Origin: a virus
Lineage: Duplodnaviria > Caudoviricetes
Reading direction: 5' to 3' (one strand)
Length of the DNA stretch: 29,467 nt
IMG/VR virus record: IMGVR_UViG_3300033067_000880
Location: 1-29,467 of that record
Position 1 is the stretch's first letter. Each line of letters begins with the position of its first letter. This document shows, in pieces, positions 1 to 25,043 of the stretch. The notes beneath the pieces are model-generated. The model searched no databases. It saw only the letters and a program-made list of their open reading frames with translations, and was not told where the DNA came from. Made by a program: the position numbers and the translations under genes.

Positions 1-2225
1 GGATTCCTTTGCGGCGAGTAGCCGTACTTGGCGAAATACCGATGCCACGCCTGGATGTATGCGGCGTTCGAGTTGTGGACCTGATCGCCTGCGGGTGAAG
101 CGTCCGGGGAGCCCGGCGCGATGCCGAGGTCATAGGCGAGGGCGTCCCCGCCAGAGTACAGGAGCGAGAGGTCGGCAACGATGAACCCGGGACGCGGACC
201 GAGATAGGCACCGATGACGCTCGCGTAGCGGTCAAAGCGGTATTCCTTCTGGGCGTACTGCTGGAGTCCCGTGCCGCCGCTGATCGCCGTGTCGTCGGCA
301 ATGACCGTTTTTGTGGCCGAGAGCGGTATCGGGCGCACCCAGACGTACCAGAAGCGAGCCGCGTCTCCGCCCGCCGCGATCCACTTGGACCGCTTGAGGT
401 TGTAGTCAAAGAGCAGATCCGTCGCAAGCCCGAGCGGGTTCATCAGGAGATTGCCCTGATAGACAACCGACGTGTCGGCGTGCGCCGCCGGGACCGTGCC
501 ATAGATGCCCCGCGTGATCGTGCCCGCGTACGTCGTCGCCGTGATGGACGTGTAGCCGATTCGCTCGGTGCCGATGAGGATGTGGCCCGACGCGGGCGAG
601 CCAGCGGTGGAGACAACCGTGATCGCCGTCGTTGAGGCGTTCGTTACAGCCGTCCCGCCGTTGATGGTCGTCTGTCGTGCGATGGTCCAAGGCTCTGTCG
701 GGTCCACCAGAGCAGTCTCCGCCGTGGCCGCCGCCGTCGATTCGTTGTGGCCGGTACAGGTGACTTGGCAGAACCCGCCGATCTGGTTGCCGCCAAGGGC
801 CGTCGCACACGCGCCGGTGGTCGTGTCGGCCCCGAAGAGCTTGTACCGAGAGACGAGCCCCGCGTCAAACTCGCACGTCGTATTCGTCACATCGTAATTG
901 CGGAGGGCCTTGAGGAGAGCATTGAGCGTCTTGCCGCCCTGAGAGTCGCCCTCGGACTGGATGATGCCATATGGCCGATTGGCCGCGAAGAGCCCTTGGT
1001 ACATGATCGCCGCCGGACCCGCAGGGCCGCGCCCGTTCGTCGCCGACGTTCCAAAGTCGAGCGTCACCTGCGCCGTGCTCGTGAGGTCCGAGCCGGTGTA
1101 TCTTCGGTCGATGCGATGCAGCGAGCCAATCGCGTACGTCGCATCCCCGAGAGTCTGGAGGTGGCCTACTGCCGTGCTGTTGGAGTGAGCGTTGCCAGCC
1201 GTTCCGAGCTGCGCCCGCGTGATGCCCGTAAACGTCGTGGCAGTCTTGCCCGTGTAGGCGATGATCTCTTGAACCGTGCCCTCGGTGATGATGTAGCCAG
1301 CCGTGGGAAACTGAGTAGTCGAGACGACGGTAATCGCCGCTGTCGTCACGCCGTCAGCAATGCCTCCATTGAGCGTCGTCGTCGTCTTGGCGGTGTAGGT
1401 CGTGTCGGTGTTGACCGGCGTAGCCGTCGTGTCGAATTGCAAAGACGCGATCGCGCACTGGGCCGCGTTCAGGTCGATGTTCGTCATGTAGAAAACCGAC
1501 TGAACCAAAACCGCTCCCGAGCCGATAGGATGCTTCGCCGCCGAGAGCATCGTGCTGATCGCCGCGCCGTTGTCGCACTGTCCGATGACCGCGCCGCTGG
1601 AGTGGGTCGCCGCCGTGGTTCCAAGGTTGCCGCGCGAGCAGCCGGTAAAGACGTTGGCGACAAGGCTCGTGTACTGGACAATCTCGCCGTCGATGCGGAT
1701 GCGTCCCGACGCCGCGAATCCCGCCGTGCTCGTGGCGGTAATGTCGCCGCCGATGAGGACCGCACCATTGGCCGTCGTCCCCGCGAGGTATCCGACTTGC
1801 GGGCCGATGTAGCCGCTCGCCGCCGGCACCGGGATCTGGCACCCGTACTGCTTGAACGCGACGGGGTAGCCGACAGCATCGACGCCGATGTCATTGACGC
1901 ACCCGAGTTTCGTGCTCGCGTTATTCCGACGCCGGGCTTCGTTGAGTCCCGCAGTGTCGTTGAATGCCGCCGTCGTGTTGGCCGGGATGAACTGCCCCGC
2001 ACACGGCGCGACGCCCGCGAACCCCTTCGCGAATCCGACCGAGTGCCCGCCGCCGGACCGCTCCACCGTCGAATCGCCCCACGCCTCGAACGTGAGCCGT
2101 CCCGTGCTTGTGGCGAACGTCACCATGTCGGTAAACGACTGGGGTTCAGCACGGGCCATCGGGATCGGCGCGAGCACCGACGCGAACGCGAGCAGGATCA
2201 GGACGGGAAGCCGAATCAGTCTCAT
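1..2225 (-). CDS. Secreted SGNH/GDSL-type hydrolase with three inserted ~65-70 aa repeats (3' partial, at least 741 aa)
   Basis: Manual translation is open from ATG 2225 (ATGA overlap) to the window edge. Signal peptide MRLIRLPVLILLAFASVLAPIPMARA; WGDS (GDS at 2070-2078); GHNE (741-752); DQVH (75-86). Missing from the ORF track because there is no stop in the window. Confidence 0.8.
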   Translation of the reverse strand, partial: MRLIRLPVLILLAFASVLAPIPMARAEPQSFTDMVTFATSTGRLTFEAWGDSTVERSGGGHSVGFAKGFAGVAPCAGQFIPANTTAAFNDTAGLNEARRRNNASTKLGCVNDIGVDAVGYPVAFKQYGCQIPVPAASGYIGPQVGYLAGTTANGAVLIGGDITATSTAGFAASGRIRIDGEIVQYTSLVANVFTGCSRGNLGTTAATHSSGAVIGQCDNGAAISTMLSAAKHPIGSGAVLVQSVFYMTNIDLNAAQCAIASLQFDTTATPVNTDTTYTAKTTTTLNGGIADGVTTAAITVVSTTQFPTAGYIITEGTVQEIIAYTGKTATTFTGITRAQLGTAGNAHSNSTAVGHLQTLGDATYAIGSLHRIDRRYTGSDLTSTAQVTLDFGTSATNGRGPAGPAAIMYQGLFAANRPYGIIQSEGDSQGGKTLNALLKALRNYDVTNTTCEFDAGLVSRYKLFGADTTTGACATALGGNQIGGFCQVTCTGHNESTAAATAETALVDPTEPWTIARQTTINGGTAVTNASTTAITVVSTAGSPASGHILIGTERIGYTSITATTYAGTITRGIYGTVPAAHADTSVVYQGNLLMNPLGLATDLLFDYNLKRSKWIAAGGDAARFWYVWVRPIPLSATKTVIADDTAISGGTGLQQYAQKEYRFDRYASVIGAYLGPRPGFIVADLSLLYSGGDALAYDLGIAPGSPDASPAGDQVHNSNAAYIQAWHRYFAKYGYSPQRN

Positions 2226-2485
2226 GGGGTCACTCCGGGGGGTGTCGTCTTGCCGCCGCGAACCCACGCCGCGCCGAGCGTCGAGAGGTTGCCGACAAGT
2301 CCGCCGACGATGAGGTTGAAGGGAGGAGGAAGGAACGCACCGAGCCCGCCGACCGTTGGCCCCGTCGTTTCGAGCGACTTGGCGACGGCCTCCCGCTGTG
2401 CGTCCCCTTGGGCGCCGGGAAGGAACGAGCAACCGGCGATGAGCAACGCGAGCCCGACGATCGAGAGAGCGATGATCTTTCTCAT
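2222..2485 (-). CDS. Small lipoprotein (87 aa) with C-terminal hydrophobic segment; spanin-like candidate
   Basis: MRKIIALSIVGLALLIAG-C lipobox at Cys19; hydrophobic LGAFLPPPFNLIVGGLVGNLSTLGAAWV; ATGA overlaps at both ends. Confidence 0.7.
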   Translation of the reverse strand: MRKIIALSIVGLALLIAGCSFLPGAQGDAQREAVAKSLETTGPTVGGLGAFLPPPFNLIVGGLVGNLSTLGAAWVRGGKTTPPGVTP

Positions 2486-2670
2486 TTGGCCGCCTCCGTG
2501 GCGATTCCCGTGTCGTCGATCTTGGACCACTGCGAGAGGATGCCAGTGACCGCCGCCATGATCGCGGTGCCCCATTCGACACTCGCGTACTTCGTGCAAA
2601 GGCCCATCGCCGCCATGAGGAGCAGTTTGCGGATGAGCGAGTTGACGGTGGGGGTAAACAGCTTTTTCAT
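2482..2670 (-). CDS. Small membrane protein (62 aa), holin-like
   Basis: MKKLFTPT... with two short hydrophobic helices and a charged C-terminus; coupled by ATGA overlaps. Confidence 0.55.
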   Translation of the reverse strand: MKKLFTPTVNSLIRKLLLMAAMGLCTKYASVEWGTAIMAAVTGILSQWSKIDDTGIATEAAK

Positions 2671-2981
2671 GGGTTCCGCCTTTCGAGGATCTTCTTCACG
2701 TCGAGCCCGATCTCTTTCACGTCCGCCTTGGTCTCTTTGAGGTCCGTCTTGATCTGCTTCGCGTCTTCCTTGGCCGAGTCCGCCGTGGTCTGGGCCGTCT
2801 TGATGCTCTCTCGGAGCTGCGACCACACGAGCACGGCGCTTCCGCCCGCGAGAACGAGAGCGACCGTGAACGCCCATGCCGCCCGAGCGTTTGCCGACAC
2901 CTTGGAGTCTGGCGTGAACTCGGGCTCTCGGTTGTCGTTCACCCGGTCATGTGGATTGAAGGCGTGCTGCCTGTGAGACAT
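2667..2981 (-). CDS. Single-TM plus coiled-coil protein (104 aa); holin- or i-spanin-like
   Basis: TM AWAFTVALVLAGGSAVLVW followed by heptads IKTDLKETKADVKEIGLDVKKIL; AGGAG RBS. Confidence 0.6.
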   Translation of the reverse strand: MSHRQHAFNPHDRVNDNREPEFTPDSKVSANARAAWAFTVALVLAGGSAVLVWSQLRESIKTAQTTADSAKEDAKQIKTDLKETKADVKEIGLDVKKILERRNP

Positions 2982-2996
2982 AGAGACTCCTGTAGA

Positions 2997-3458
2997 TCAA
3001 GAATGAGCGATGGAACTCCCGCTCTCGCGCCGACACCATCCGCTGATCGTCACTGTCGCCGCCCGTATCCGCCGCTGTTCGTCGGGAACCTGCGCCTCCT
3101 GAATAATCGCCTCGTCGAGGTGCAGCTCGTGAGTCGTCCCCGCGTCCGTCGTGTACTTCATGCTCATCGCCTGTTCCACTTTCGAGCAGGCCCCGTCCAT
3201 CGTCGCCTGATCGGTTTCGATGCGAGCCTCCGAGACGATGACGACGACTACGACTTTCACGTCGGCCAGGTGGTTCTCGTCATTGCGGCACCGGCGCCGG
3301 GACACCAAGTCGCACGCGACAAGCCGAATCTCCACCTCGGGGCTATCGGGGTCAACGCCGCCGAGCGGAACGAGTGTGTAGTTCGTCCCCGCGATCGTGA
3401 GGAAGAGGTCCGTTACGAGCTTGACGATCATGGACTTGTCGATGAACACGTCGGCCAT
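2997..3458 (-). CDS. Putative tail terminator/completion protein (153 aa)
   Basis: Size, helix-strands-helix-strands pattern (DVKVVVVVIVSE...MDGACSKVEQAM...RAATVTISG) and position among virion genes. Confidence 0.5.
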   Translation of the reverse strand: MADVFIDKSMIVKLVTDLFLTIAGTNYTLVPLGGVDPDSPEVEIRLVACDLVSRRRCRNDENHLADVKVVVVVIVSEARIETDQATMDGACSKVEQAMSMKYTTDAGTTHELHLDEAIIQEAQVPDEQRRIRAATVTISGWCRRESGSSIAHS

Positions 3459-4291
3459 TACCAGAGCCCTCCAAGATCCTGGAGGTCGTAGATTTGAGCC
3501 GCCGACGACGCGATCGGGACGCCATCCTTATTCGTCTTGGTCCACTGCGTCAGCCAATCGGGCGCGGCCTGGAGCAAGTGAACCACTTCGTAGACGTAGT
3601 TCGTGCCCGTCGCCGAGAGAATCCATTGGGTCGATTGAGGCCCCATGTACCGGAGTTGGCCGATCGCAAAGTCGAGCGACGGCGGAGATAGATTGAGGTT
3701 GTACGGCGTCTTCATCCGCGGCAACGTCATGGCGTTCGCGTTCCGCGAGCCGTTGGCACCGAGTGTCAGCATCCGGGCCATGTTCAGCGACTGGGGATTG
3801 AGCGAGAACCCGTGAACCTTGCACGAGAACGACGCGACTTCCTTTGCGGCGCCCTCGCCGTTATTGATCGGGCCGCTGTCGCCCTCGTGGCCCGGAGTGA
3901 ATGGACCGCCCGGGTTGAATCCGAACATGACCTGCACCGATCGCTGGGTGTAGTCGAGCTCCGTGTAGTTGCTCTCGGGACCCGTCACCTGATAGCCCCA
4001 GTTCACGTAGCCAGCCGATGCGTACTTCACCGTGACCTTGCAAGCCCCGCCGGTCTGGTTGCCCTGCCGGTCCCACCCGCCGATGCGAACCGCCTCCGCC
4101 GTCGTCGCGAATAGCCCGGTCGTCCCGTACTGGTCGCCCACTCGCGGGATGCCCGTCGCCATCAATGCGACGAGGTGATCGCCGGTCCCAGTGACAAGGG
4201 CAGTGCGTGTCATAGTCCGACCATTCGCGTCTTTGGCGGATGAGGTCGGGAACTTTTCGAGGTCGTCGGGCCATGAGACTTCAATCGCCAT
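3458..4291 (-). CDS. Hypothetical virion/tail protein (277 aa)
   Basis: Beta-, G- and T-rich ORF in the late operon; TAATG overlap with the next gene. Confidence 0.6.
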   Translation of the reverse strand: MAIEVSWPDDLEKFPTSSAKDANGRTMTRTALVTGTGDHLVALMATGIPRVGDQYGTTGLFATTAEAVRIGGWDRQGNQTGGACKVTVKYASAGYVNWGYQVTGPESNYTELDYTQRSVQVMFGFNPGGPFTPGHEGDSGPINNGEGAAKEVASFSCKVHGFSLNPQSLNMARMLTLGANGSRNANAMTLPRMKTPYNLNLSPPSLDFAIGQLRYMGPQSTQWILSATGTNYVYEVVHLLQAAPDWLTQWTKTNKDGVPIASSAAQIYDLQDLGGLW

Positions 4292-4303
4292 TGGTGGTCA
4301 AAC

Positions 4304-4786
4304 TCAGTACGTCGCCTTCGTGAAGTCCGCCATCTTGCAGACGATGGTGATCGTCGGGATTGAATCAACCTGGTCCGACGTTGCGATCTCGGGCACCTTG
4401 TCGAACCAGCAGTTTGCCATCGTGATCTTCTGGCCGACCGACGCGCCGCGGAAGTTGGGCCACGAGAGCACGAGCCCCGCCGTGTGGGTCGGCACCGTTC
4501 CGGCCGCCGCGTTGACCGCAGCTGCCAGGGCGTAGAGGCTCGTCGCCGTCGTGAAGTCCAGGCCGCGAACATCGAACGAGACGCGACAGAGCGAGTCGTC
4601 GAGTTCGATGGGTGTCTGTTGAACCGATCGATCGGTGTACTCGAATCGGCCTCGGTTGCCTTCCATGACCTTCACAGAGCCGGGAACGATGTTCTGCACC
4701 GTGATCGTGTCGGTGGCAGTCGTGAGGATCGCCGTGCCCGAGTTCTCGAACCGGCGCGGCGTGCTGTGGGCGTTGACTGAGGCCAT
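4304..4786 (-). CDS. Putative tail tube protein (160 aa)
   Basis: Size and beta-strand pattern typical of tube proteins (CRVSFDV, LVLSWP, KITMANCWF, TITIVCK); AAGGA RBS. Confidence 0.5.
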   Translation of the reverse strand: MASVNAHSTPRRFENSGTAILTTATDTITVQNIVPGSVKVMEGNRGRFEYTDRSVQQTPIELDDSLCRVSFDVRGLDFTTATSLYALAAAVNAAAGTVPTHTAGLVLSWPNFRGASVGQKITMANCWFDKVPEIATSDQVDSIPTITIVCKMADFTKATY

Positions 4787-4810
4787 GGGTGTTTCCTTCG
4801 CGTGAGTGGA

Positions 4811-5638
4811 TTACCGCGCCTGGCGCGGATCAACGATGTCGGGGAGAGTGCAGGTGCCCCAAGCGATGAGGCTCGGGTCGGATGGGTTGATGATGCGAAC
4901 GGCGGCGCCGAGGGTCGATGCTCCAAATGTCAGGGGCCGGGCCAGCCGCGAGAAGTCGAGCACACCCGACGTCGCAATCATCGTGCCGCACGTCAGGCCC
5001 ATCGGTCCAGTGTCGGTTCCGAATCGAACCGTGCCGCCGGACACCGTGAGCGTGCCCGAGGGTGTCACGTCCTTATGACTCATCCGCAGTTCGCCGCCGG
5101 ACACCACGCCATCGGTGAAGTCCCGCAGCGTCTCGCAGACGCCTCCCGAGACGGTCAAGAGGTCAACCGTGGGATTCGCGTTGCTCTGCGCGATGTACAT
5201 CGCCCCGCCCGAGACTCGGCAGTTGTCGAGGTCCACCGAGTCCCAGACGTTCGTTGCCCCGCCCTTGCCGAGAAGGTTCTTGAGCCGGCAGTCGGTCCAG
5301 TGAACAGTCCCGCCGTTGACGGGATCGATGAGAGCCTGATAGATGATCGCCGCGTTGGACGATGAACCGAGTTTGAGCGTCCGCCCGCCCCAGTTGACGG
5401 TCACGAGGCCCGTACTCGTCCGGTCGCAAACAAACTTGAATGGGGCCGCCTCAATGTCGCCCGTATACCCCGCACCAAACTTCACCGCGAGCAGATCGAT
5501 CGCCGCCAGGTTGGGCAGACTGTTCGTGTACTTCACCGAGTCCCGCGAGAAGCTCACGGAGTCGCCGGCCGCGGGCGTGCCGCCGAGAGCGACGAGAATG
5601 TCGTTTGAGAGCACGTCGTTATAGAAGATCGTCGGCAT
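4811..5638 (-). CDS. Beta-helix-like virion protein (275 aa)
   Basis: PAAGDSVSF N-terminal motif and recurring VSGG/VNGG turns (CRVSGG, LTVSGG, VVSGG, LTVSGG); AGGAG RBS. Confidence 0.6.
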   Translation of the reverse strand: MPTIFYNDVLSNDILVALGGTPAAGDSVSFSRDSVKYTNSLPNLAAIDLLAVKFGAGYTGDIEAAPFKFVCDRTSTGLVTVNWGGRTLKLGSSSNAAIIYQALIDPVNGGTVHWTDCRLKNLLGKGGATNVWDSVDLDNCRVSGGAMYIAQSNANPTVDLLTVSGGVCETLRDFTDGVVSGGELRMSHKDVTPSGTLTVSGGTVRFGTDTGPMGLTCGTMIATSGVLDFSRLARPLTFGASTLGAAVRIINPSDPSLIAWGTCTLPDIVDPRQAR

Positions 5639-5649
5639 CCGTGAAACTC

Positions 5650-5886
5650 CTACCGCACTTCCATCTCGGCCCTCAACCTCACAAACGCGATCAACTGCGC
5701 CTTCATCCCCCGGCCCATCCGCTCGAACCGCCGCACGTACTCCACCGGGTCCTGCCCAAACGTTCTCGCTACTTCCAAGGCCATGTACAGGGGAGTCAGA
5801 ACGTGAGCCTCTTTCGTCGGGCTCGGAATGTCCTCACTCCCCAGCGGCCCCGCCCTTCCATCGCGAGGCCGCCTTATCAGTTTCCC
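5650..5886 (-). CDS. Tail assembly chaperone gpT-like extension (-1 frame of the G-T fusion)
   Basis: The -1 frame from GGGAAAC is open to TAG at 5650-5652 and reads KLIRRPRDG...LYMALEVARTFGQDPVEYVRRFERMGRGMKAQLIAFVRLRAEMEVR; it fills the gap before the next gene. Confidence 0.8.
   Translation of the reverse strand, partial: GKLIRRPRDGRAGPLGSEDIPSPTKEAHVLTPLYMALEVARTFGQDPVEYVRRFERMGRGMKAQLIAFVRLRAEMEVR
5844..5886 (-). promoter_or_regulatory. Programmed -1 ribosomal frameshift signal: G_GGA_AAC heptamer plus stimulatory hairpin
   Basis: Heptamer at 5886-5880 directly before TGA; 7 nt later a 10-bp stem GCGGCCUCGC/GCGGGGCCGC (5872-5863 with 5853-5844) with a 9-nt loop. Confidence 0.85.
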
Positions 5887-6365
5887 GCCGCACCCGCCGC
5901 AACATCCGCCGTCGCCAGTTTCTCGTACGCCGCCCGCAAAGGCTCAAGCCGACTCTCGGCCATGCCGCCCAGGACTCTCATCGCCTCTTTGCACCAAGCC
6001 TCGTTCGCCGCGCCGATTTCGTTCTCGGGCAGCACGAGTACCTCCGACAACGCCATCGGCGCCGGGTTCTTTGCGATGCTCGCCGGGCCGGTGTTGACCG
6101 TGTAGCCGATGGTCACGGAAAGATCGATCGCCGCCGCGAGTTCAAGGATGCCCATTTCCTTCTGGTCCGCCATGAGCCGGGCCTGATAGATCGGGCTCGC
6201 GTAGTCCCGCTCGCCGTTCTCCATCGTCGGGGCCACCGGCGCGGGCCAGTTCGCCCGAAGCTGCGCCATGGTGGCGACAGACACCGCCGTCAGTTTGCAG
6301 GGCTTGCCGAGCCAGGTGATTTCCGCCGTGTCCAGAAGTGCCGCCGATTCGTCGATCGTGAACAT
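5877..6365 (-). CDS. Tail assembly chaperone gpG-like (162 aa)
   Basis: Ends in ...AAGN* on a slippery heptamer, as in many tail chaperones; N-terminal EITWLGKPCKLTAVS pattern; GGAG RBS. Confidence 0.75.
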   Translation of the reverse strand: MFTIDESAALLDTAEITWLGKPCKLTAVSVATMAQLRANWPAPVAPTMENGERDYASPIYQARLMADQKEMGILELAAAIDLSVTIGYTVNTGPASIAKNPAPMALSEVLVLPENEIGAANEAWCKEAMRVLGGMAESRLEPLRAAYEKLATADVAAGAAGN

Positions 6366-6393
6366 TCGATGCTCCGTGAGGGATGGGAACTTG

Positions 6394-6433
6394 AATCAAA
6401 CGGGCACGAGCGGGTTTTCGCCGCTCGCCCCGT
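6394..6433 (-). terminator. Probable weak intrinsic terminator or stabilising hairpin after the major capsid gene
   Basis: mRNA ACGGGGCGAGCGG-CGAAAAC-CCGCUCGUGCCCGU followed by a short tail UUGAUU. Confidence 0.55.
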
Positions 6434-6445
6434 AGTCATGAGTGG
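6433..6445 (-). repeat. Inverted 13-bp copy of the late element (TAGTCATGAGTGG on +)
   Basis: Exact reverse complement of CCACTCATGACTA at 7440-7452 and 12326-12338. Confidence 0.85.
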
Positions 6446-6450
6446 ACGGT

Positions 6451-7425
6451 TTAGGAGTGGACAGACTTCAGGAGGCAGCCCGTCGCCGTGTAGTTGACCT
6501 GGATGCCAACGGTTCCACGGAAGCGGTACACGTCCGAGCGGGCCGACTCGTCGCGGTACTGTTCCGCGATTTCGTCGCCACCGTCGGCGGTGTTGACGTA
6601 GGTACGTCCGACGCAGAACTCATCGGGCGAATTGGTCTGCGCGACGTTGCCGACCCATGCGTAGGTGTCGGACCAGATGCCCGAGAGCGAGATTGCCACG
6701 CCCTCGGTTGCCCCGTTCTTGAGCGGAGTCCCGACGATGATGTCCTTGAGGCCCAGGGCGGCGGCGATCGATGCCCGGTTGGCGTCGTTCACGAGCTGAT
6801 CCGGGAGGATGGTGTACTTCTTGTTTCCGATGATCTGGGCGTTGTTGAGCAACGCGATCATGTTCTTCCAAGAGCACACCATGACAGCATTGGTCGGGTC
6901 CGCGCCGTTGGCGTACATGCACTCAAGAGCGAATCGCACGTCGTCGATCGGGGTGCCGCTCGCGCCGTCCCAGACGTTCGAGACGGTCTTCCCGGTCGTG
7001 CCCGCCAGGGGCCAATTCGTCTCGTTGAACAGGGCGGTTGCGGCGATGACTTCGCGGGCCGTGATGACCCGGCGACGGAGGATCTCGATGATGCTCGCCT
7101 CGTACTGGAACATATCCTCGTAGTTGGCCCGGTCGTTGTCGTCGTACGGCAGTTCGAGGCCGTCGTCGTAGCAGACGTAGGTCTTCTCGCTTGTCTTGCC
7201 GACGACGCGGTTGTAGTTGCCGCCCGGAGCTCGCTTGGTCAGCGCCGGGTTTTCGTAGTAGTTGGTCTGGGGCATCGTCCCGAACGAGCCCTTGTTCTTC
7301 GGCACGTTGATGCGGCCGAAGACTTTCTGGTAGATCGGGTTGAAGCCAAGGGGACGTTCTTTGACGGTGATCATCAGGTCTCCACGCGGGAGAGCCTGAG
7401 AGGTGGAACCACGGATGATGGGCAT
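6451..7425 (-). CDS. Major capsid protein, lambda gpE-like (324 aa)
   Basis: Follows protease and cement genes; RAPGGNYNR, KTYVCYDDGLELPYDD, REVIAA, WD...TPIDD, GIWSD motifs; GGAGA RBS before ATG 7425. Confidence 0.88.
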   Translation of the reverse strand: MPIIRGSTSQALPRGDLMITVKERPLGFNPIYQKVFGRINVPKNKGSFGTMPQTNYYENPALTKRAPGGNYNRVVGKTSEKTYVCYDDGLELPYDDNDRANYEDMFQYEASIIEILRRRVITAREVIAATALFNETNWPLAGTTGKTVSNVWDGASGTPIDDVRFALECMYANGADPTNAVMVCSWKNMIALLNNAQIIGNKKYTILPDQLVNDANRASIAAALGLKDIIVGTPLKNGATEGVAISLSGIWSDTYAWVGNVAQTNSPDEFCVGRTYVNTADGGDEIAEQYRDESARSDVYRFRGTVGIQVNYTATGCLLKSVHS

Positions 7426-7433
7426 TGCTGATT

Positions 7434-7464
7434 TCTCCACCACTCATGACTAGTGGGTGATGGG
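7434..7464 (+). repeat. Late element copy upstream of the capsid gene: TCTCCACCACTCATGACTAGTGGGTGATGGG
   Basis: 23 bp identical to 12320-12342, then TGATGGG after a 1-nt indel; includes the RBS. Confidence 0.9.
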
Positions 7465-7484
7465 AAAATCGGGAACGGGGGATC

Positions 7485-8078
7485 TTACGCGGAGATGTCG
7501 GACGAGTCGAAAGCGTGAATGGCGTACACGTCGTCGGCGGCGCCAGCGGTCACGGTCACGACGACCTGGGTTGCACTCCAAACGACGGTGGAGAGTGCTC
7601 GCGGTGCGCCGGTGGCGAGAACGAAGACCTGGACGAGGCCGACAGCGGGCGAGGCCGGGAAGGGATGGGTGAGCGTGAAGGCCGCGCCGCCGGTGGTTCC
7701 CTTCGCGTCCCAGCTTCGCTTCGACGGCTCGGGCAGGAGCTTCATCACTTCCGCGATGCCCGAAACGCTGGCGCTCGCGTTGATCGCCTTGCCGATCGGG
7801 GGACCGCTCTTGGTCGTGCTTCCCTGTCCGTTGGCCGCGCCGTAGATCGTGTCGCCCGCAACAAAGGTCGTTGCCATCGACAGGCGGAACGTGTCGGGCC
7901 GCGAGTGAAGGTAGCCGATCGCCTGATCGCCCGAGGCGTAGGCGTTGGCAGAGGTCGCGTCGTGGTCCTCGCCGACGCCGGCATAGACCCAGGTGTTCGA
8001 GGAGATTTTGAGACGGCGTGCCTCTTCGAGGGCCGTGCCAGCGGGCAGAGTCATAATGCCCGGATTCGTGGTGGTCAT
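7485..8078 (-). CDS. Capsid cement/decoration protein (DUF2190-like) with C-terminal extension (197 aa)
   Basis: AGTALEEARRLKIS...FVAGDTIYGAANGQGS...IGKAINASA...IAEV pattern; lies between scaffold and capsid genes. Confidence 0.7.
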   Translation of the reverse strand: MTTTNPGIMTLPAGTALEEARRLKISSNTWVYAGVGEDHDATSANAYASGDQAIGYLHSRPDTFRLSMATTFVAGDTIYGAANGQGSTTKSGPPIGKAINASASVSGIAEVMKLLPEPSKRSWDAKGTTGGAAFTLTHPFPASPAVGLVQVFVLATGAPRALSTVVWSATQVVVTVTAGAADDVYAIHAFDSSDISA

Positions 8079-8136
8079 TGGTCGTTTCTTTCAGCCGCTT
8101 AGCGGCGTGGATGCGTGTGGTTTCGACGCCCGCGAG

Positions 8137-8655
8137 TTAGAGCCCCTTGGCCCCGTCCGCGAGCCATTTCTCGTGAGCCTCGGGGTTCTTGCCCGCCGCC
8201 GCCTCGATCGCCTTGCCCTGAGTCATGCCCGCCGCGACGTTGGCCTTGACGAGCCCGATGAACGAACCGGCCTCGGCCTGAGCAGCCGCCGGGAGCTTCA
8301 ACGGATCGGCCCGACCGGACGACTGAGCCGCGAGTGCCTGTTGCCCGGGAGTGAGTTGCGCCGCCGACGCATTCGCGCGGAGGGTGTCATTCTCGGCCCG
8401 CAGACGCTTGGCATACGCCGCCGTCGCCTGGGTCTCGGTCATGCTCGCTTCCATGCACGTCTCGCGGAAGGACGCGAGTTCGTCGCCCGGCGCGATCGCC
8501 TTGAGCTGAGCGATGGTTGCCGCCGGTTCCTTGGCGGATGCCTTGGCCTCGGTCGCCAGAGCCTCGCACAACTCGGGGTGAGCCGCCCGCATTTCGGCGA
8601 GCGTGCTGATCTTTGGAACCGGCACGCCCGGCCCCTGTTTGTCCTTGTCAGACAT
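8137..8655 (-). CDS. Nested in-frame scaffolding protein (Nu3-like, 172 aa)
   Basis: Internal ATG (MSDKDKQG) preceded by GGAG at 6-nt spacing, after an acidic linker; helical Ala/Glu-rich sequence; same layout as lambda C/Nu3. Confidence 0.6.
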   Translation of the reverse strand: MSDKDKQGPGVPVPKISTLAEMRAAHPELCEALATEAKASAKEPAATIAQLKAIAPGDELASFRETCMEASMTETQATAAYAKRLRAENDTLRANASAAQLTPGQQALAAQSSGRADPLKLPAAAQAEAGSFIGLVKANVAAGMTQGKAIEAAAGKNPEAHEKWLADGAKGL

Positions 8656-9624
8656 GGTGGACTCCAATGCGGCCGGGGTGTGAGAGCCAGCGCGGGCCGC
8701 CGCGTCTGGCTCTGAGGAATCTGAGGGAATAATACCCTCTTCGTTTTTGTCCGCGTCCGGGAGGTCGTCGGCGCACATTTCGATCGCCGCCGTCTCTTCC
8801 CACTTGCCGCCCGAGACGAGACGGACGTAAGCATCGAAGGGAGCGATCGCGTCGATGAGCCCGGCGCGAAGTCCACCCGTCGCCGTGAACAAACGGGCTT
8901 GCATCGCCTTCACGTCGGCCTCGGGAATGTCGCGCCGCTCCGATACCAGTTGGCGGAAGTCGCCGCCCATGCTCTCGGCGAGAGACGTGAAGTACGCCAT
9001 GACTTCCGGCGTCAGCGGTTGCGTCGGGTCGCCAAAGTCCTTGAAGTCGCCATCCTTCGCATTCTTCACGACGATGCCGAAGTCCGCGAGCATCTTGCTC
9101 ATATCCGTGATTTGCCAGATCGTGCCGATCGAGCCGACCATGCCAGTCTTTGTCGTGACAATGCGAGCCGCCGACGCCGCATACATGTACGCCGCCGACA
9201 TGGCCCAATCGTGCGGGAGGGCATGCGTCCGCTTGACCGCCGCAAGAGAACCGATCGCCTCAACCACGTCGTTCGAGCCACCCACCGTTCCGCCCGGCGA
9301 GTCAATGTCGAGCAGTACGTCGGTAGCCATGTCGCCCTCGGCCTCGTGACACGCCGCAACGATCGCCCGCGTGTGGACGCCGCCCATCCAGAAGGCATCG
9401 ACCCAATCGTTCATCACGGGGCCGCGAATCTTGAGGATGAGTGCCGAGCCCGAACGCGACAGGAGCGGGGACTTGACGGGCAGATCGCCGCCGACCGGCA
9501 TCGCCGTAGACATGCCCATCCGCAGGGCCGCGCGAGTGATTGCCGCGAGTGCCGCCCGGGGCTCCATCGCAAGCGGCTGAGACAAGAGCGAACGCATGGC
9601 CGATTCTGTGTGGGTGTTGCTCAT
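8137..9624 (-). CDS. S49 (SppA/gpC-like) prohead protease fused to scaffold domain (495 aa)
   Basis: LLDIDSPGG, AMSAAYMYAASA, VGSIG, GDFKD and GLIDAI motifs; ATG 9624 overlaps the portal stop. Confidence 0.92.
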   Translation of the reverse strand: MSNTHTESAMRSLLSQPLAMEPRAALAAITRAALRMGMSTAMPVGGDLPVKSPLLSRSGSALILKIRGPVMNDWVDAFWMGGVHTRAIVAACHEAEGDMATDVLLDIDSPGGTVGGSNDVVEAIGSLAAVKRTHALPHDWAMSAAYMYAASAARIVTTKTGMVGSIGTIWQITDMSKMLADFGIVVKNAKDGDFKDFGDPTQPLTPEVMAYFTSLAESMGGDFRQLVSERRDIPEADVKAMQARLFTATGGLRAGLIDAIAPFDAYVRLVSGGKWEETAAIEMCADDLPDADKNEEGIIPSDSSEPDAAARAGSHTPAALESTMSDKDKQGPGVPVPKISTLAEMRAAHPELCEALATEAKASAKEPAATIAQLKAIAPGDELASFRETCMEASMTETQATAAYAKRLRAENDTLRANASAAQLTPGQQALAAQSSGRADPLKLPAAAQAEAGSFIGLVKANVAAGMTQGKAIEAAAGKNPEAHEKWLADGAKGL

Positions 9625-11249
9625 GGTTTCGCCGGTTCGTCCTTCGCGGGTCCGTCCTTCGTGTTGTCCGGCTGGCCCGGCGTCTTCGTGCCAGGGAGTT
9701 GGCTGGGCGTGATCCCCTTCGCGGCCTCGTCCTTCACTTCGATCTGACGACGTGCCGCGTTTTTCTCGCGGTCCCCGAATCCAAGCTGCTGGGTCGCGTG
9801 TTCCTTCGTCGTCAAGTTCCCATTTACCGCCGCGAGCCATGCTGCAACGTCCGTGCCCATGTCGATGACCGGCGCGGGCGGAGCGGATATTTCATGGCGT
9901 GCGTTCCAGTCCTCAACAAAGGGGAGTCGTCCCGCTTTGATCGCCGCCGCGAGCCGCCACAGAATGAGCGGGCGGTAGAAGTCCTCTTTCTGCCAGTGCT
10001 GGAGCGTGCCGATCGTGGTAGACCACGCGATCGCTACCGTCACCTTCGCATTGCTCGCGGTCAACCCCTGGAAGTCAAACACCGAGAGCATCATCGGCAA
10101 GCCCACCTCGGAGCCGATGATCTGGGCGTTCGTCATCACAAACTCGCGGAAGTTCGTCGCCGGTTGCTCGGGCTTGATCTGTTCCACGCCCTCATTCGGC
10201 TTACAATGGAACTGGAATCCGGGCTCAAGCGCCGCCTCTTTCGGCGTGCCTTCGACGACGGACTCTGCCGCGCCGATCGCCGCGCCGAGCGAGTTCTCCA
10301 TCGCCTGACGCTGGGCCGCCGGGGTCTCGGATTTGTACACCAGCCCGAAGAGCGTTGCCATCTGTGACGCGACAGCCACGTTATCGATGTAGTCGTCGAT
10401 GAGCCGGAAGCGGTTGATGCTCGCCTGGAACCCGGGCTCGCCGCGGAATTGGTTCGCCCTCGCCCACAGCGGCCAGCGGAGATAGATGCACTCTTCCGCC
10501 GCAACCCGCGTCGGGTCCGCGAGCACTCCGAACGCGCCCATGATCGGAGCCGTCTGCCCGACGCCGCTCTGAGGCCGGTTCGTCTTGGCCGACGCAACGT
10601 CCTTCCACTCGGCAACCCAAAACGCGGCGATGCGGCCCGTCGTCTTGTCAACCTCCACTCCGTCATAGACGAGGTTCCCGTTCTCGCCCGTGACGATCGT
10701 TCCAATGTCGCCGCGATCCTTGACGCCGGGCGAGACGATCTGCTGGGCTTCGACTGCTTGGAGCTCGCCGCTCTGGAGCTTGACGTAGAGAATGTCGCCA
10801 TCGGAAAGGCCGGCACAGATTGACTGCTGGACGATCTGCCACGCCCGCAACCGCTCCATGTCCTCTTCGATGAACGCCTCGGCGAGCTCGTTCCACGCCT
10901 GATCCTTCGACCGGGCCTGGAAGGTGTAGCCGTCGCCGCCGACGCACTCGGACAGCCGACGCCCCATCATGCGGGCGAGCGTGTTATTCCGCAAGAGGTC
11001 CTGAACCCGCCCAGTCTGCGTCGTTCGTGCCCGCTGATTGAGGCTCGTTCGAGACGGTCCCGGGTAGACGTAACGACCGCCGCCGGCCCGTGCGAAGTTC
11101 TCGCTCTTGTATCCGCCGACCATCGCCAGGGCCTTGCCCGCTACCGCGATTTGCAACTGCGCGAGAGCGAGACGCGAGCCCGCTTCGGCCTGTTCCGCCG
11201 CTTGCGCCACACTCTGGACCGCCTCGATTGTGCCGTTCGTTCCCGACAT
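9621..11249 (-). CDS. Portal protein, lambda family (~542 aa)
   Basis: RVQDLLRNN, VGGDGYTFQ, DGDI, DGVEVDKTTGRIAAFWV, NQFRGEP, GLPMMLSVFDF motifs; ATG 11249 preferred over TTG 11258 on RBS spacing. Confidence 0.92.
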   Translation of the reverse strand: MSGTNGTIEAVQSVAQAAEQAEAGSRLALAQLQIAVAGKALAMVGGYKSENFARAGGGRYVYPGPSRTSLNQRARTTQTGRVQDLLRNNTLARMMGRRLSECVGGDGYTFQARSKDQAWNELAEAFIEEDMERLRAWQIVQQSICAGLSDGDILYVKLQSGELQAVEAQQIVSPGVKDRGDIGTIVTGENGNLVYDGVEVDKTTGRIAAFWVAEWKDVASAKTNRPQSGVGQTAPIMGAFGVLADPTRVAAEECIYLRWPLWARANQFRGEPGFQASINRFRLIDDYIDNVAVASQMATLFGLVYKSETPAAQRQAMENSLGAAIGAAESVVEGTPKEAALEPGFQFHCKPNEGVEQIKPEQPATNFREFVMTNAQIIGSEVGLPMMLSVFDFQGLTASNAKVTVAIAWSTTIGTLQHWQKEDFYRPLILWRLAAAIKAGRLPFVEDWNARHEISAPPAPVIDMGTDVAAWLAAVNGNLTTKEHATQQLGFGDREKNAARRQIEVKDEAAKGITPSQLPGTKTPGQPDNTKDGPAKDEPAKP

Positions 11250-11250
11250 T

Positions 11251-11619
11251 TCAGCCAAGCTCCCTTGTCGTCAATCGATATTGACGCCCCGCGACTTCCG
11301 CCGTTGCATGAACCACAGGATATGTCACGCCGCCGAGTGTCAGTTTGTCGTTCTCTTGCGGCGCCCGCGAGAGGCCCGACGCTTTGATGATCCAGGTCGT
11401 GTCCTTGACCTTCGTCGGCTTGCCATTGATCGGCGTCTCGTAGCAGATTGTGGCCCCGCGAACGCAATCGACATCGACGCCCGGGGCCGTCGTAACCGTG
11501 TTCTTCATCGTCGTCGTCGAGAATGCCCCGAGCGTCACGAGATAGAGCACGGCCTGAACGTCCGACAGCATTTCTACCGTGTCGGCCGCGAGCGTGTCGA
11601 GTTCTGTGCTGTAGCTCAT
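11251..11619 (-). CDS. Putative head closure/head-tail joining protein (gpFII-like, 122 aa)
   Basis: WIIKASGLSRAPQENDKLTLGGVTYPVV motif typical of head stoppers; ATGA overlap. Confidence 0.6.
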   Translation of the reverse strand: MSYSTELDTLAADTVEMLSDVQAVLYLVTLGAFSTTTMKNTVTTAPGVDVDCVRGATICYETPINGKPTKVKDTTWIIKASGLSRAPQENDKLTLGGVTYPVVHATAEVAGRQYRLTTRELG

Positions 11620-12068
11620 GTAATCACCCCGCCGGCGCCTTCGCCGCCATCGGTTCCGCCCGGGATGATGCCGCCCACGCCGCCGGGAGACGCGCCGGAC
11701 CCCGCCGCAACCGCCGCCGTCGCCACGTCGGTATCCGCGGCGACGACAAGATCGACCGTGCCCGTTACCGCCGCGGCGAGCCATGCGATTTCAATCTCGG
11801 TCGCCCCGGCCATGTCGGTCGTGCTCGCGACAACCGCCCCGCCGCCAGCCGCGATGGTCTTGGCACCGCTGGCGAAAGCGAACGGCCCGACGTTGCCCGC
11901 CCACCACTGGACCGAGAGCGTGCCCGCGGCCCACGCACCATCGACAAGCCGAGCCGAGATGGTCGCAGCCTTCCCGTTGGCGACAGGGAAACGCCAGACT
12001 CCGCTCGGAGTGTTGAGACTCACCCGCCGCGTCTGTACCGGCCTTGTCAGTGTGGGGACGGTGTTCAT
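11616..12068 (-). CDS. Hypothetical virion protein (150 aa) with Gly-rich C-terminus
   Basis: Start MNTVPT at an ATGA overlap; beta-rich sequence. Confidence 0.6.
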   Translation of the reverse strand: MNTVPTLTRPVQTRRVSLNTPSGVWRFPVANGKAATISARLVDGAWAAGTLSVQWWAGNVGPFAFASGAKTIAAGGGAVVASTTDMAGATEIEIAWLAAAVTGTVDLVVAADTDVATAAVAAGSGASPGGVGGIIPGGTDGGEGAGGVIT

Positions 12069-12313
12069 CCGAATCGTGCCCTCGTGATGTTCGCGTATCC
12101 GCCGGTTTGCACGTCGGGCATTCCGAGCAGTCGCATCTGCTGGCGTTCGAGCAACGCGAGATATTGCACAATGTCGCCGGTCGAACGACTCGCGCCATCC
12201 TTCGACACGCTCGGACCCATCTGGAGAGTCACCTCTCCAATGTGCAATTGCAGCATGGCGAGCTGGGCCGCTGTCGTCGATTGGGATGCCCACGCCGAGT
12301 AGGAATAGGACAC
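12065..12313 (-). CDS. gpW-like head-to-tail adaptor (82 aa)
   Basis: Helix-hairpin-helix pattern (QLAMLQLHIGEV...SVSKDGASRS...IVQYLALLERQ); lies between terminase and portal; GGAGA RBS, GTG start. Confidence 0.65.
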   Translation of the reverse strand: MSYSYSAWASQSTTAAQLAMLQLHIGEVTLQMGPSVSKDGASRSTGDIVQYLALLERQQMRLLGMPDVQTGGYANITRARFG

Positions 12314-12319
12314 TTTGAC

Positions 12320-12349
12320 TCTCCACCACTCATGACTAGTGGTGATGGG
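12320..12349 (+). repeat. Late element copy upstream of the gpW-like gene: TCTCCACCACTCATGACTAGTGGTGATGGG
   Basis: Near-identical to 7434-7464; contains the perfect dyad CACCACT-N7-AGTGGTG. Confidence 0.9.
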
Positions 12350-12358
12350 GGGGGACGC

Positions 12359-12862
12359 TTATCCGCCCGCGAGAACAGGCGTCGTCCTTACGACCGCCTC
12401 AATCTCCGCGAGCCTGCCCGCGATTTCGACCGGCTGGAAAGCGTTCTCGGCGTCCCGCAGCTTGGTCCGCAGTTCGGAGATGCGAAGACGCCGGGCCTGC
12501 GCCTGGTCGTCGTCGTCCTTAACCGCGGCCTTCCACGCTTCGTTCGCTTCGGTGATTGCGGCCCGGTACTTGATGAGCCGGGTATGCTCGCCCGCGAGTT
12601 CGTCGTCTCGCAGTTCGGAGACGGGAAGCGTCTGGGGATCTCGCACAGCATCCGCGAGCGACATGGGCGGATTCTCGATCGCCGTTTCCGCGTCGTCGGG
12701 GCCGATCTTGCCGGGCGTTTCCGCGTCGTCGGGGCCATCGACCGGCGGCGCGTCAGTCAAGATACCGCTGCCCGACCTTGGCTCGTTCGCCGACTCGCTC
12801 GCTGTCGTCGCGAGGTCCTGGAGGCTTGACTCTTCCGCCGCTTTGGTCTTGACCTTTGCCAT
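12359..12862 (-). CDS. Hypothetical protein (167 aa), acidic disordered N-half and coiled C-half
   Basis: AGGAG RBS before MAKVKTK; 21-bp direct repeat encoding GPDDAET twice (12683-12703, 12716-12736); overlaps the terminase 3' end. Confidence 0.6.
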   Translation of the reverse strand: MAKVKTKAAEESSLQDLATTASESANEPRSGSGILTDAPPVDGPDDAETPGKIGPDDAETAIENPPMSLADAVRDPQTLPVSELRDDELAGEHTRLIKYRAAITEANEAWKAAVKDDDDQAQARRLRISELRTKLRDAENAFQPVEIAGRLAEIEAVVRTTPVLAGG

Positions 12863-14717
12863 TGGCCGCTCCTGTGACGTTGATTTCCCGAACACCGAAT
12901 CGCTCAAGCATAGCCGCCGCGTAGACAAATATATCCCAGAAGTGATTTGCCGTCCCCTTGCGCCTCACGTCCCAGAGTCCATTGAGGTATTGCTCGCTGC
13001 AAAGTTGGCCGAGTAGATTCGTGTCCGCGTCCTTTGGAAGGTGCCATGTCGAGACGGTTCCGGCGTTCGTTCCGTCCGCGAGCGAGACGATGTTCATCGC
13101 GTGTTCCGCACTGGTATTCGAGAGCCAACGGGCCATCGAGTTCTTCCAGAGCGTGACGTTGATGAGGTGGAGCGGCACCTCGCCATCGCCGCACTTCTGC
13201 ATCGAAGTCGAGTAGAGCCGCGAGTCTTTATTGCCCCTCGTCGCCCGGCCTTTGACGAGAACCGTTCGAGCGTCCCGGTCCTTGCGATAGCGGTAGAGCG
13301 TGTCGGTCCGGTGCCCGGTATCGACGACGACCAGGGCCGGCGAGAACGCCCGATCTTTCATGCCCGGGACCGCCATCGGCCATTGGCGCTTCCGCACGTC
13401 GTCAAGGGCCGTCGCCAAGGTTCCGTCGCCAAGGCAGTCCTCGCATCCCCAATCGACGAGCCAAATGTGCTCGCCGCGATTCGAGAACGCGAAGAGAGCC
13501 CAGTACATCCGGTCCGGCTGAACATCGCACGAGAGCAGCGTGCCGACAGTCCCGATCGGACATTGCCCCCGCGCGTTGGGAGACTGCTTGGCCCGCGCCT
13601 CCAGTTCCGAGACTTCGATGCGTGACCCCTTCACCATGAAAGCCTCCCCGAGAGTTTCGGTACACCACACGTAATCGACCTGCCCGTGTGCCCGGATCTT
13701 CTCCAGAAACGCCGCCGCGACTTCGCCGTATGGATTCGGGAGCAGATCGTTGTCGATGCCCAGGATTGCGAACGAGACGTGATCGATCGGAGGCATCGGA
13801 CCAATGACGGCGCCCGCTACGTCGTGCCCGTGCTCGTCCTTCGTGAGGGCCGCGATCGATTGGCCCTGCGCGACCCACTCGCCGAGCCGCCCTTGCCATG
13901 CGCGATCGGAGGCCGAGCACTTGCCCGCACAGGCTGGACATTCGTACCACGCGGTCCGCCGGACGATCGTTGGATCGGCGTCCCCTCGGTTGGCCCATCG
14001 CACTTGCCGCCAGGTCCGCGAGTGGTACTGCCGACAATGAGGACACGGGACGTACCACTGAAATTGGCACGTCGCCGATGCTCGCCGGGCGTCGATGCCC
14101 TTGCCGGCGTCCCCGGGTGTGCCCGTTTCAATGACCTTGGAATCGGCAAACGTCTTGCCTCGCTCGAGCAACTTGGACGTTGCGAGCGGGTCGCATCGGT
14201 CGTACTCGTCGATCCAGACGTATCGCGCGGGCGTGCCCTCGGTTCCGCTCTCGCTGTTCGAGCCGATCCATTCGACGATGCCGCGATCGAAGGTCGTGCG
14301 AGCGGAAGTAAACGCCCGCTTCTCGTTGCCGACGTGACGCATCGCCCGGGCGCAGGCTTTGAGTGCCGGTTGGAATCGCGTCTTGTTGAAGTCCTCGGCC
14401 TTCTCGGCCTTGGGGAGCATAATCATCCATCGGCCCGGGCGCACGTCCATCGACCACAGGACGACGCCGATGATGAGTTCGGTAAAGCCGCACTGAGCTG
14501 GCTTTGAGATGGTGATAACGCGAACGTCGGACCGCCCGCACATTTCCATCATGCGGCGCGTGTAGGGGACGATTCGCGTTTCCCACTGGCCCGGCATGGC
14601 ACCGCCGACGATGACGCGATTCTCGTCCATCCACTCGGCGACGGGAAGCTCGGGCTCGACGTGAAAGACGAGCGAGAGGGTTGCGGCCATGATGTCGCGT
14701 GCGGAGGCGTAGGGCAC
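12753..14717 (-). CDS. Terminase large subunit, lambda GpA family (654 aa)
   Basis: PGQWET..VPY, KPAQCGFTE (Walker A-like), VWIDEYDR (Walker B), GTP, CPHC/CPAC, CDVQPDR, VDTG and NHFWD..VYA motifs. Confidence 0.95.
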   Translation of the reverse strand: MPYASARDIMAATLSLVFHVEPELPVAEWMDENRVIVGGAMPGQWETRIVPYTRRMMEMCGRSDVRVITISKPAQCGFTELIIGVVLWSMDVRPGRWMIMLPKAEKAEDFNKTRFQPALKACARAMRHVGNEKRAFTSARTTFDRGIVEWIGSNSESGTEGTPARYVWIDEYDRCDPLATSKLLERGKTFADSKVIETGTPGDAGKGIDARRASATCQFQWYVPCPHCRQYHSRTWRQVRWANRGDADPTIVRRTAWYECPACAGKCSASDRAWQGRLGEWVAQGQSIAALTKDEHGHDVAGAVIGPMPPIDHVSFAILGIDNDLLPNPYGEVAAAFLEKIRAHGQVDYVWCTETLGEAFMVKGSRIEVSELEARAKQSPNARGQCPIGTVGTLLSCDVQPDRMYWALFAFSNRGEHIWLVDWGCEDCLGDGTLATALDDVRKRQWPMAVPGMKDRAFSPALVVVDTGHRTDTLYRYRKDRDARTVLVKGRATRGNKDSRLYSTSMQKCGDGEVPLHLINVTLWKNSMARWLSNTSAEHAMNIVSLADGTNAGTVSTWHLPKDADTNLLGQLCSEQYLNGLWDVRRKGTANHFWDIFVYAAAMLERFGVREINVTGAANGKGQDQSGGRVKPPGPRDDSERVGERAKVGQRYLD

Positions 14718-14734
14718 GCGGGGAGTTTAGCGGC

Positions 14735-15109
14735 CTACTCCATGTCTTCGAGAACGAGACGGCGCAGGCGTCTGTCACTCTCGCTCGCGGCGGTGGGTGG
14801 CATGTTCAACGATACGAAGCCCGCTTTCATTTCTGGCGTGGGATTCAACCCGATCAGTTGCCCGTTGCCGATGCCGACGAGATAGCCCTCGCCGAGAACG
14901 TGCCGGATCTCGGGCGCGTCCATCTTGAACTCGGGCGGTCCTTCGTCGCCGTGTCCGCCACGCCCACGACACGCGGAGGCAACGATCTTGTCGGCCTCTG
15001 CTTCCGTGTAGCGGCCCGCGTCGTCGATATTCGTCGTGTACCCGCAGTGGTTCGGACCCCACCACGCATTATGTTCGCGGGAATAGACCAGCATTGTTCG
15101 TTCGCTCAT
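14735..15109 (-). CDS. Hypothetical phage protein (124 aa)
   Basis: WWGPNHCGYTTNIDDAGRYTEAEA motif of a kind seen in phage hypotheticals; GGAGG RBS, ATGA overlap. Confidence 0.65.
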   Translation of the reverse strand: MSERTMLVYSREHNAWWGPNHCGYTTNIDDAGRYTEAEADKIVASACRGRGGHGDEGPPEFKMDAPEIRHVLGEGYLVGIGNGQLIGLNPTPEMKAGFVSLNMPPTAASESDRRLRRLVLEDME

Positions 15110-15381
15110 TCGGTTTCCTCCCCGATCTTCTCGGGTTGCTCCAATCCGACACGGCCCCACTTCTCACGCATGAACGCGATGTCTTTGCGGGTCGCCTTTC
15201 GCCAAGTCACCCATCCGCCGTCGCAATGCTTTCGGCAGAGCCAAAGTTCGCCGCCGTTGAGCCAGCGAAACGATCCTTCCGTTTCTGGCGTGTCTCCGGT
15301 TGAACGCTGGCCAGCCTCGGTCCACACGTCCACAATGCGGAAGGTGTGTCCCCATTGCGTGTTGTACTTCCGCTCGCTCAT
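15106..15381 (-). CDS. Hypothetical Trp-rich protein (91 aa)
   Basis: GGAGG RBS and ATGA overlaps at both ends. Confidence 0.55.
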   Translation of the reverse strand: MSERKYNTQWGHTFRIVDVWTEAGQRSTGDTPETEGSFRWLNGGELWLCRKHCDGGWVTWRKATRKDIAFMREKWGRVGLEQPEKIGEETE

Positions 15382-15710
15382 GTCGCCTCCCATTTTCGCC
15401 GATCGAACTTGTACCGCGCGTACTCCGCGATCAGCTTCCGGCCCGACTTCGTTGTCGGCAGTTTCTTGATCCACTCGCGGGCACGATTGGTCTGCGCCTC
15501 TGTGAGCGGCTTGCCGGGTGTGATTCTGAACCGCCGTCTAAACAAGACTTTGCAGTCCTCGGTGATCGCGTCGATTTCCTTCTGTGTCCTTGCGCATTGC
15601 TCATTCCACTCCCGGGTTTCCTGCTCCGTCATGGGCTTCGATACCGGGAGCGGCTTTCCTCGCATCTCAACAATCGCCGAGAGAGGTATGCCTCGTGGTT
15701 TCCGCTTCAC
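15378..15710 (-). CDS. Hypothetical basic protein (110 aa)
   Basis: GTGA/ATGA overlaps at both ends. Confidence 0.55.
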   Translation of the reverse strand: MKRKPRGIPLSAIVEMRGKPLPVSKPMTEQETREWNEQCARTQKEIDAITEDCKVLFRRRFRITPGKPLTEAQTNRAREWIKKLPTTKSGRKLIAEYARYKFDRRKWEAT

Positions 15711-25016: not shown

Positions 25017-25043
25017 TGGGTGGTCCTCTGTTTCGGTTCGCAT

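Follow-up and report, generated by a model that had tools for sequence, protein, structure and literature searches.

Complementary leader and trailer of a phage major capsid gene co-vary between two phage lineages

The head module and the complementary flanks of the capsid gene

The DNA analysed here (the window) is the whole of a linear virus record, IMGVR_UViG_3300033067_000880, comprising 29,467 nucleotides of a Caudoviricetes phage and about 47% complete. Its minus strand carries a lambda-like head module made up of the small and large terminase, portal and head protease genes and the gene of the major capsid protein, together with a probable decoration gene (Table 1). Sixteen public runs hold at least half of the sampled words of positions 5500-13000, and those of the sixteen with a stated habitat are metagenomes of rivers, wastewater and freshwater; no RNA run is listed among them. 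Elsewhere in the window, adjacent DNA methyltransferase and helicase genes (16578-18943) lie upstream of the terminase genes, and tandem 30-nt units (24613-24911) lie within a minus-strand open reading frame (24291-25043) for which neither Pfam nor PHROG returned a match.

In the initial annotation, the capsid gene was described as bracketed by a perfect 13-bp inverted repeat whose trailer copy, just after the stop codon, is complementary to the leaders of both the capsid gene and the small gene that follows the terminase genes. Both statements are confirmed: a search of the window for perfect matches to the 13-mer finds just three, at 6433-6445 on the plus strand and at 7440-7452 and 12326-12338 on the minus strand. 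With up to three mismatches allowed, eight matches are found against a shuffle mean of 3.98, and the five further ones, each with three mismatches, are at chance level. Inverted repeats of at least 13 bp are not rare, 20 pairs being present in window positions 1-15,600; between random pairs of 60-nt windows, a run of at least 13 bp occurred in 3 of 19,886 trials.

A metagenome scan recovered one close relative, represented by the contigs L007 and L008, which share 99.7% identity; its capsid protein is 71% identical to that of the window. Another contig, L001, is the same phage as the window (99.98%).

Table 1 Features of the capsid locus and of the second leader copy (window coordinates)
Feature	Position	Strand	Remarks
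Major capsid protein gene	6451..7425	-	324 aa; PHROG 1005 major head protein, E 4.9e-32; start and stop verified
Probable decoration gene	head module	-	label by position only
Predicted capsid leader hairpin	7430..7470	-	6-bp lower stem, 7-bp upper stem CCAUCAC/GUGGUGG, short top stem, loop
Predicted loop CUAGUCA	7447..7453	-	opens with YUNR motif; CUGA in L007
Leader copy of 13-mer	7440..7452	-	loop and first four bases of the hairpin 3' arm; at -27..-15 from the ATG
SD-like GGAG	7435..7438	-	9 nt ahead of the ATG; sequence reading; retained in L007
CCG extension	6447..6449	-	would add 3 bp (one G-U) beyond a one-base bulge, engaging the GG of GGAG
Trailer copy of 13-mer	6433..6445	-	complementary to both leaders; begins 5 nt past the capsid stop
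Terminator-like or 3'-protecting stem	6400..6433	-	directly 3' of the trailer copy; U tract weak
82-aa gene after terminase	12065..12313	-	possibly head-completion or adaptor protein
Second upper leader hairpin and SD-like motif	12320..12349	-	ahead of the small post-terminase gene; absent in L007/L008

The capsid leader is predicted to fold into a hairpin of one and the same architecture in both phages, with folding energies of -15.4 kcal/mol in the window and -18.6 kcal/mol in L007 (z -1.7 to -2.2 against shuffles). The 7-bp upper stem is invariant between the two, and the top stem is predicted to comprise 2-3 bp. In both phages, the hairpin would bury the GGAG, which we take to be the Shine-Dalgarno (SD) motif, as well as the bases downstream of it. 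A YUNR motif is present on the 5' side of both predicted loops (CUAG in the window, CUGA in L007); its retention through two transitions only is weak evidence.

The trailer is predicted to be largely single-stranded, lying as it does between the capsid stop codon and the strong stem at 6400-6433. In L007, a different 9-bp stem takes the place of the latter; in the window, the stem was not called by the terminator scan. The overlap of the trailer with the base of this stem, pointed out in the initial annotation, exists and amounts to just one base. Display of the trailer in a CCGU...ACGG loop, as suggested there, is not favoured: the 32-nt piece folds no better than its shuffles (z -0.28), and its ACGG is used by the base of the terminator-like stem. 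A search of the window with the Rfam covariance models gave no match at E up to 1.

Several further features of these sequences were recorded. At 6443-6464, the final capsid codons echo the start of the trailer motif, with GTCCACTC occurring twice, 14 nt apart; six bases of this repeat are retained in L007. Seven bases of the trailer motif, CCACUCA, occur again in the mRNA past the stop of a 275-aa gene (4788-4813); not being retained in L007, this copy is probably due to chance. The word CTAG is strongly avoided in the window (observed/expected 0.2), and two of its four sites (7450, 12336, 19294 and 25205) are the two leader loops. A self-complementary 6-8-mer lies in or at the leader loop of both phages (window 7444-7449, L007 7974-7981), through which two leaders may be able to pair with each other (computed at -6.6 and -13.8 kcal/mol), maybe by chance. 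Leader-peptide models were dropped, as the AUG in the leader loop and the AUG in the trailer are both absent from L007, and so was the idea of CATG or GATC methylation sites, neither word being depleted and the two phages differing from each other in them.

Compensatory changes between two phages

L007 and the window are 70.6% identical over 14,964 aligned columns. In the L007 leader, positions 2, 3 and 7 of the 13-mer are altered, and its trailer carries the three complementary alterations. With one extra pair, the L007 match becomes a perfect 14 bp at unchanged offsets, so that the 5' and 3' UTRs of the capsid gene are complementary over 13 bp in one phage and 14 bp in the other. Two of the co-varying positions are inside the predicted loop; the third, 7446, is beside it.

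As a control, every inverted repeat of the window was mapped onto L007. Of the mappable repeats of at least 13 bp, only the leader-trailer pair is still perfect there (1 of 14), the other 13 being lost. At a threshold of at least 10 bp, two of 280 are perfect, and the leader-trailer pair alone is so by way of substitutions. The naive odds of three matching changes by chance are 1e-4 to 1e-3, a figure that comes from a single comparison of two independent lineages in which two of the three changes are adjacent and may be one event. The conservation and co-variation of both ends had been named in the initial annotation as the test of its proposal of long-range or in-trans RNA pairing, and both are seen in L007/L008, which lends that proposal support. 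Judged by this comparison, the leader-trailer complementarity is real and selected. Because the two ends co-vary and a predicted leader hairpin with its YUNR loop and a terminator-like stem are present in both phages, leader and trailer very probably pair in RNA, the basis for this being two lineages.

Selected complementarity could also arise in DNA. The repeats might be an operator or late promoter present in both orientations, or recombinase sites with matching spacers that invert the capsid gene, and such spacers would likewise yield co-varying inverted repeats. The presence of the exact 13-mer at the starts of two genes and at the end of one would suit this reading; the matching variable cores beside an invariant GAGTGG side are reminiscent of spacer-plus-arm sites, and in a record about 47% complete a recombinase could be missing. 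Against it, no inversion joints were seen in the contigs of 8 runs (at low depth and with rare variants dropped), one 23-kb contig crosses 5000-13500 unbroken, and the orientation is unchanged in L001, L007 and L008. The runs X18-X20, in which the phage has a small share, gave short pieces that do not reach the repeats. A search for tyrosine or serine recombinases gave no match to PF00589 or PF00239 in records G000 and G001 (47% and 44% complete, respectively), and no sigma-70-type promoter was called in 3000-17000. The palindromic cores of the window and of L007 are out of register with each other, and what is conserved is a hairpin shape and G-U pairs. We consider DNA sites improbable. Of the two forms given to this idea in the initial annotation, the invertible segment is left unsupported by the contigs and the domain searches, all of them weak tests, and the third, oppositely oriented protein site is disfavoured.

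The initial annotation had further linked the pairing to read-through into the tail genes, and the pairing could in principle refold the terminator-like stem and thereby set such read-through, given that trailer copy and stem base meet in both phages. An attenuator calls for an alternative pairing that excludes the terminator stem. Here, only one base is shared, and all complexes predicted to form with the capsid leader, in both phages, contain the two helices together; the U tract is weak and the scan called no terminator. A role in read-through is thus unsupported, and we regard it as very improbable.

The occurrence of the arrangement in other phages was surveyed at several levels. Four protein scans found no further close relatives in viral contigs; none were present in GTDB genomes (best match 35% identity) or among named phages (all below 27%). 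The capsids P0003 and P0004, 67-70% identical, are, like further members of the P0002 cluster, known as Logan/ENA proteins only. Among 78 and 83 distinct capsid loci, the distant ones compared at about 23-45% identity, a leader-trailer run of at least 13 bp was confined to this clade, the next longest being 10 bp. The interaction energy has a z below -2 in 6 of the 83 loci, L001 and L007 included. A 13-bp match was recorded at one locus, L139, and a 16-bp match of the L009 trailer was treated as chance, since it falls within the upstream coding region and is missing from the relative L011. Pattern scans with a 16-mer and with the hairpin matched 3 unrelated contigs and 19 other stretches, respectively; no complementary partner accompanied any of the 3 or any of the 19.

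Other capsid loci show features of their own. A C/U-rich run opens the capsid trailers of some distant relatives (L009 5270-5285, L011 8955-8970, L058 7275-7295) and, by its sequence, could pair with the SD-like motif of the same gene. A strong GC hairpin with a U run lies just ahead of the capsid start in a separate clade (L030, L056, L060, L065, L067 and L068).

The second leader copy precedes the 82-aa gene, which had been called 'gpW-like'. That name is a positional label only: the gene has no Pfam or PHROG hit, and searches of an Atlas gave weak leads to head-tail connectors, DUF6706 and DUF4054 (0.87-0.94). The two leader copies are identical in 30 of 31 columns, and the loop of the second is that of the window. 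The L007 orthologue of the gene, 63% identical, begins 3 nt past the upstream stop codon and is without the leader element. The second copy would be either a recent duplication or a copy held in step by selection; from two lineages, gain and loss are not separable.

Predicted effect of the probable pairing on ribosome access

The energetics of the two states were computed. The cognate leader-trailer duplexes, at -26.0 kcal/mol in the window and -30.6 kcal/mol in L007, are stronger than the hairpins they would replace, while duplexes swapped between the phages (-18.3 and -15.9 kcal/mol) are about equal to them. In folds of the full 1,106 nt, the inner pairs have a probability of about 1.0 in both phages. 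With the open reading frame held open, it is 0.84 for the window and 1.0 for L007, and the single best fold of the window is then the hairpin state; these values come from folding programs that treat 1-kb loops poorly. The capsid leaders are unusually closed. Opening them takes 10.1 and 10.8 kcal/mol, which places them ninth and sixth in a set of 89 capsid leaders with a median of 1.9; the starts in this set were chosen automatically and are possibly wrong in some cases. Three control starts (orf12874, orf12062 and L007 9063) are left out of the comparison. Among the 26 leaders with a local G+C of at least 55%, they rank sixth and about fourth, beneath a separate clade.

What pairing would do to ribosome access varies with the stretch that must be opened. 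For positions -14..+3, the cost of 10.8 kcal/mol in the window drops to 3.8 on pairing, and that of 11.3 kcal/mol in L007 to 7.9; with the first 8 nt from the stop codon held open, the cost in the paired state is 0.3 and 3.7 kcal/mol, respectively. For opening from -18, the passage from hairpin to paired state changes the cost from 14.9 to 13.7 kcal/mol in the window and from 11.3 to 14.8 kcal/mol in L007; from -20, pairing is the costlier state in both phages. Because the direction flips with the assumed footprint of the ribosome, the predicted sign of the effect is uncertain.

Our tentative reading, to which we give a little less than an even chance, is that the trailer invades the loop of the hairpin that covers the ribosome-binding site (RBS), displaces the upper stem and so would ease translation of the capsid gene when its transcription is complete. 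Three points favour activation: a phage requires hundreds of copies of its capsid protein, this leader is closed to an unusual degree, and the trailer does not extend to the start region. The leader would first fold as the predicted hairpin, hiding the SD-like motif and the bases ahead of the AUG, and the mostly single-stranded trailer would nucleate at the YUNR loop, a loop motif described as speeding antisense pairing (PMC6562991). As the trailer's CCG-U-CCAC imitates the 5' arm of the hairpin, all seven upper-stem base pairs could be replaced, after which the lower stem would be lost. The trailer would end at the GG of GGAG, leaving the spacer and the AUG free. In the window, the trailer may have a second target in the leader of the small gene after the terminase, acting either in trans or in cis across 5.9 kb. 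That duplex is computed to be equally strong (-26.0 kcal/mol); ribosome access to the second leader is barely altered by it (11.9 to 11.4 kcal/mol), and the best fold of the second leader pairs the CU of YUNR instead.

The same duplex might on the contrary repress, in the manner of icaR, the finished mRNA locking its own RBS so that capsid synthesis would be limited to nascent mRNA or mRNA under active translation, and abundant trailer damping the small post-terminase gene, as would fit a low-copy head protein. In either phage, the duplex does extend as far as the GG of GGAG, and it is the costlier structure to open if the 30S subunit needs bases to -18 (L007) or -20 (both). Published long-range pairings at an RBS repress (PMC3868564; PMC12697547), distal anti-SD sequences of Bacillus subtilis among them (PMC12697547). 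The trailer nevertheless pairs with only the GG of GGAG, across a bulge, and leaves the AG, the spacer and the AUG uncovered. As few capsid leaders are more closed than this one even before pairing, there is little apparent reason for locking a high-copy protein a second time. Repression appears unlikely to us.

Going beyond eased initiation, the activating reading can be extended to a closed loop, which we put forward as a doubtful but specific possibility. The stop codon would be zipped beside the start codon, the 3' end would unlock the RBS, and terminating ribosomes would expose the SD motif and re-initiate; a phage-specific loop code would avert cross-reaction between relatives, and the lock would be portable to another head gene. 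The helix might have both codons on one side, the stop 5 nt and the start 14 nt from it. The mRNA channel of the ribosome extends 11 nt past the first P-site base (PMC7282821), which corresponds to some 9 nt counted from the U of the stop codon, so that a terminating ribosome would melt roughly the 3-bp extension and free the SD motif, which might favour re-initiation on the same gene. This extension, with its G-U pair, is predicted in both phages. Re-initiation is speculative because the window leader can refold into its hairpin, as it does when 8-10 nt from the stop codon are held open.

A further reading takes the duplex as a device for stability or processing. It could shield the leader from cleavage or, with the adjacent stem, form an RNase III-type helix that excises a one-gene capsid message from the late transcript. 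A typical RNase III substrate spans about two helical turns, and 13-14 bp plus 3 bp over a bulge is short by that measure, being longer only if stacking is counted; the duplex does adjoin the 3' stem and could stack on it. The geometry recalls that described for hbs, a 14-bp 5'/3' pairing just upstream of a terminator (PMC5737220). Neither shielding nor processing would account for why the pairing replaces exactly the stem that covers the RBS, nor for the single-sided copy at 12320-12349, and we hold this reading to be quite unlikely.

Relation to known systems

Pairing of 5' and 3' UTRs is a known, small class, in a review whose main text does not contain the word 'phage' (PMC7821165), and the long-range mRNA interactions described so far in bacteria are few in number (PMC12697547). 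In a literature search confined mostly to non-subscription journals, we found neither a phage capsid case of 5'/3' pairing nor a re-initiation closed loop in bacteria or phages.

The nearest likeness is to hbs of B. subtilis, where about 14 perfectly complementary bases connect the 5' UTR of one highly expressed gene with the sequence immediately ahead of its 3' stem (PMC5737220). In hbs, the role of the pairing is to protect a leader site from RNase Y, whereas the phage partner is the loop and arm of a predicted RBS hairpin; the phage trailer also begins 5 nt past the stop codon, and a second phage gene bears a copy of the target. As with icaR of Staphylococcus aureus, the 3' UTR would meet its own translation-initiation region after a structured 5' UTR has formed, but the icaR anti-SD motif lies in a long 3' UTR, blocks initiation and recruits RNase III (PMC3868564). 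The phage core, in contrast, pairs upstream of the SD-like motif through a variable, phage-specific sequence and reaches only the first two bases of the motif.

The antisense systems hok/Sok and pIP501, as presented in PMC6562991, share with the phages a loop opening with YUNR, a single-stranded partner and variation in or next to the loop. The phage partner is, however, the same sense mRNA 1 kb downstream and not a counter-transcript, and the U-turn is here a prediction. In the closed-loop translation of eukaryotic mRNAs, BYDV and dengue, the ends of the coding region are likewise joined, by base pairing in the viruses (PMC3868564; PMC7821165), while here bacterial ribosomes would act on an internal cistron in the mRNA of a DNA phage. 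Finally, this gene would resemble rRNA precursors in being looped out by complementary flanks. The leader-trailer helices of those precursors are processed by RNase III; the phage helix is much shorter and would compete with a local hairpin over the RBS.

Relative to the known bacterial cases, the element described here would be a phage 5'/3' pairing on a major capsid gene, the sign of its effect being uncertain. The known bacterial long-range mRNA cases consulted repress translation or guard against cleavage, and the capsid case concerns the most abundant virion protein. The natural compensatory variant pair suits swap experiments, which could show if a gene can be turned on by its own 3' end, and a looped phage cistron lets one ask whether bacterial ribosomes can be recycled. 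If the pairing merely stabilises or represses, it would be a phage example of a known principle; if it activates, it would be a compact switch that responds to full-length mRNA only.
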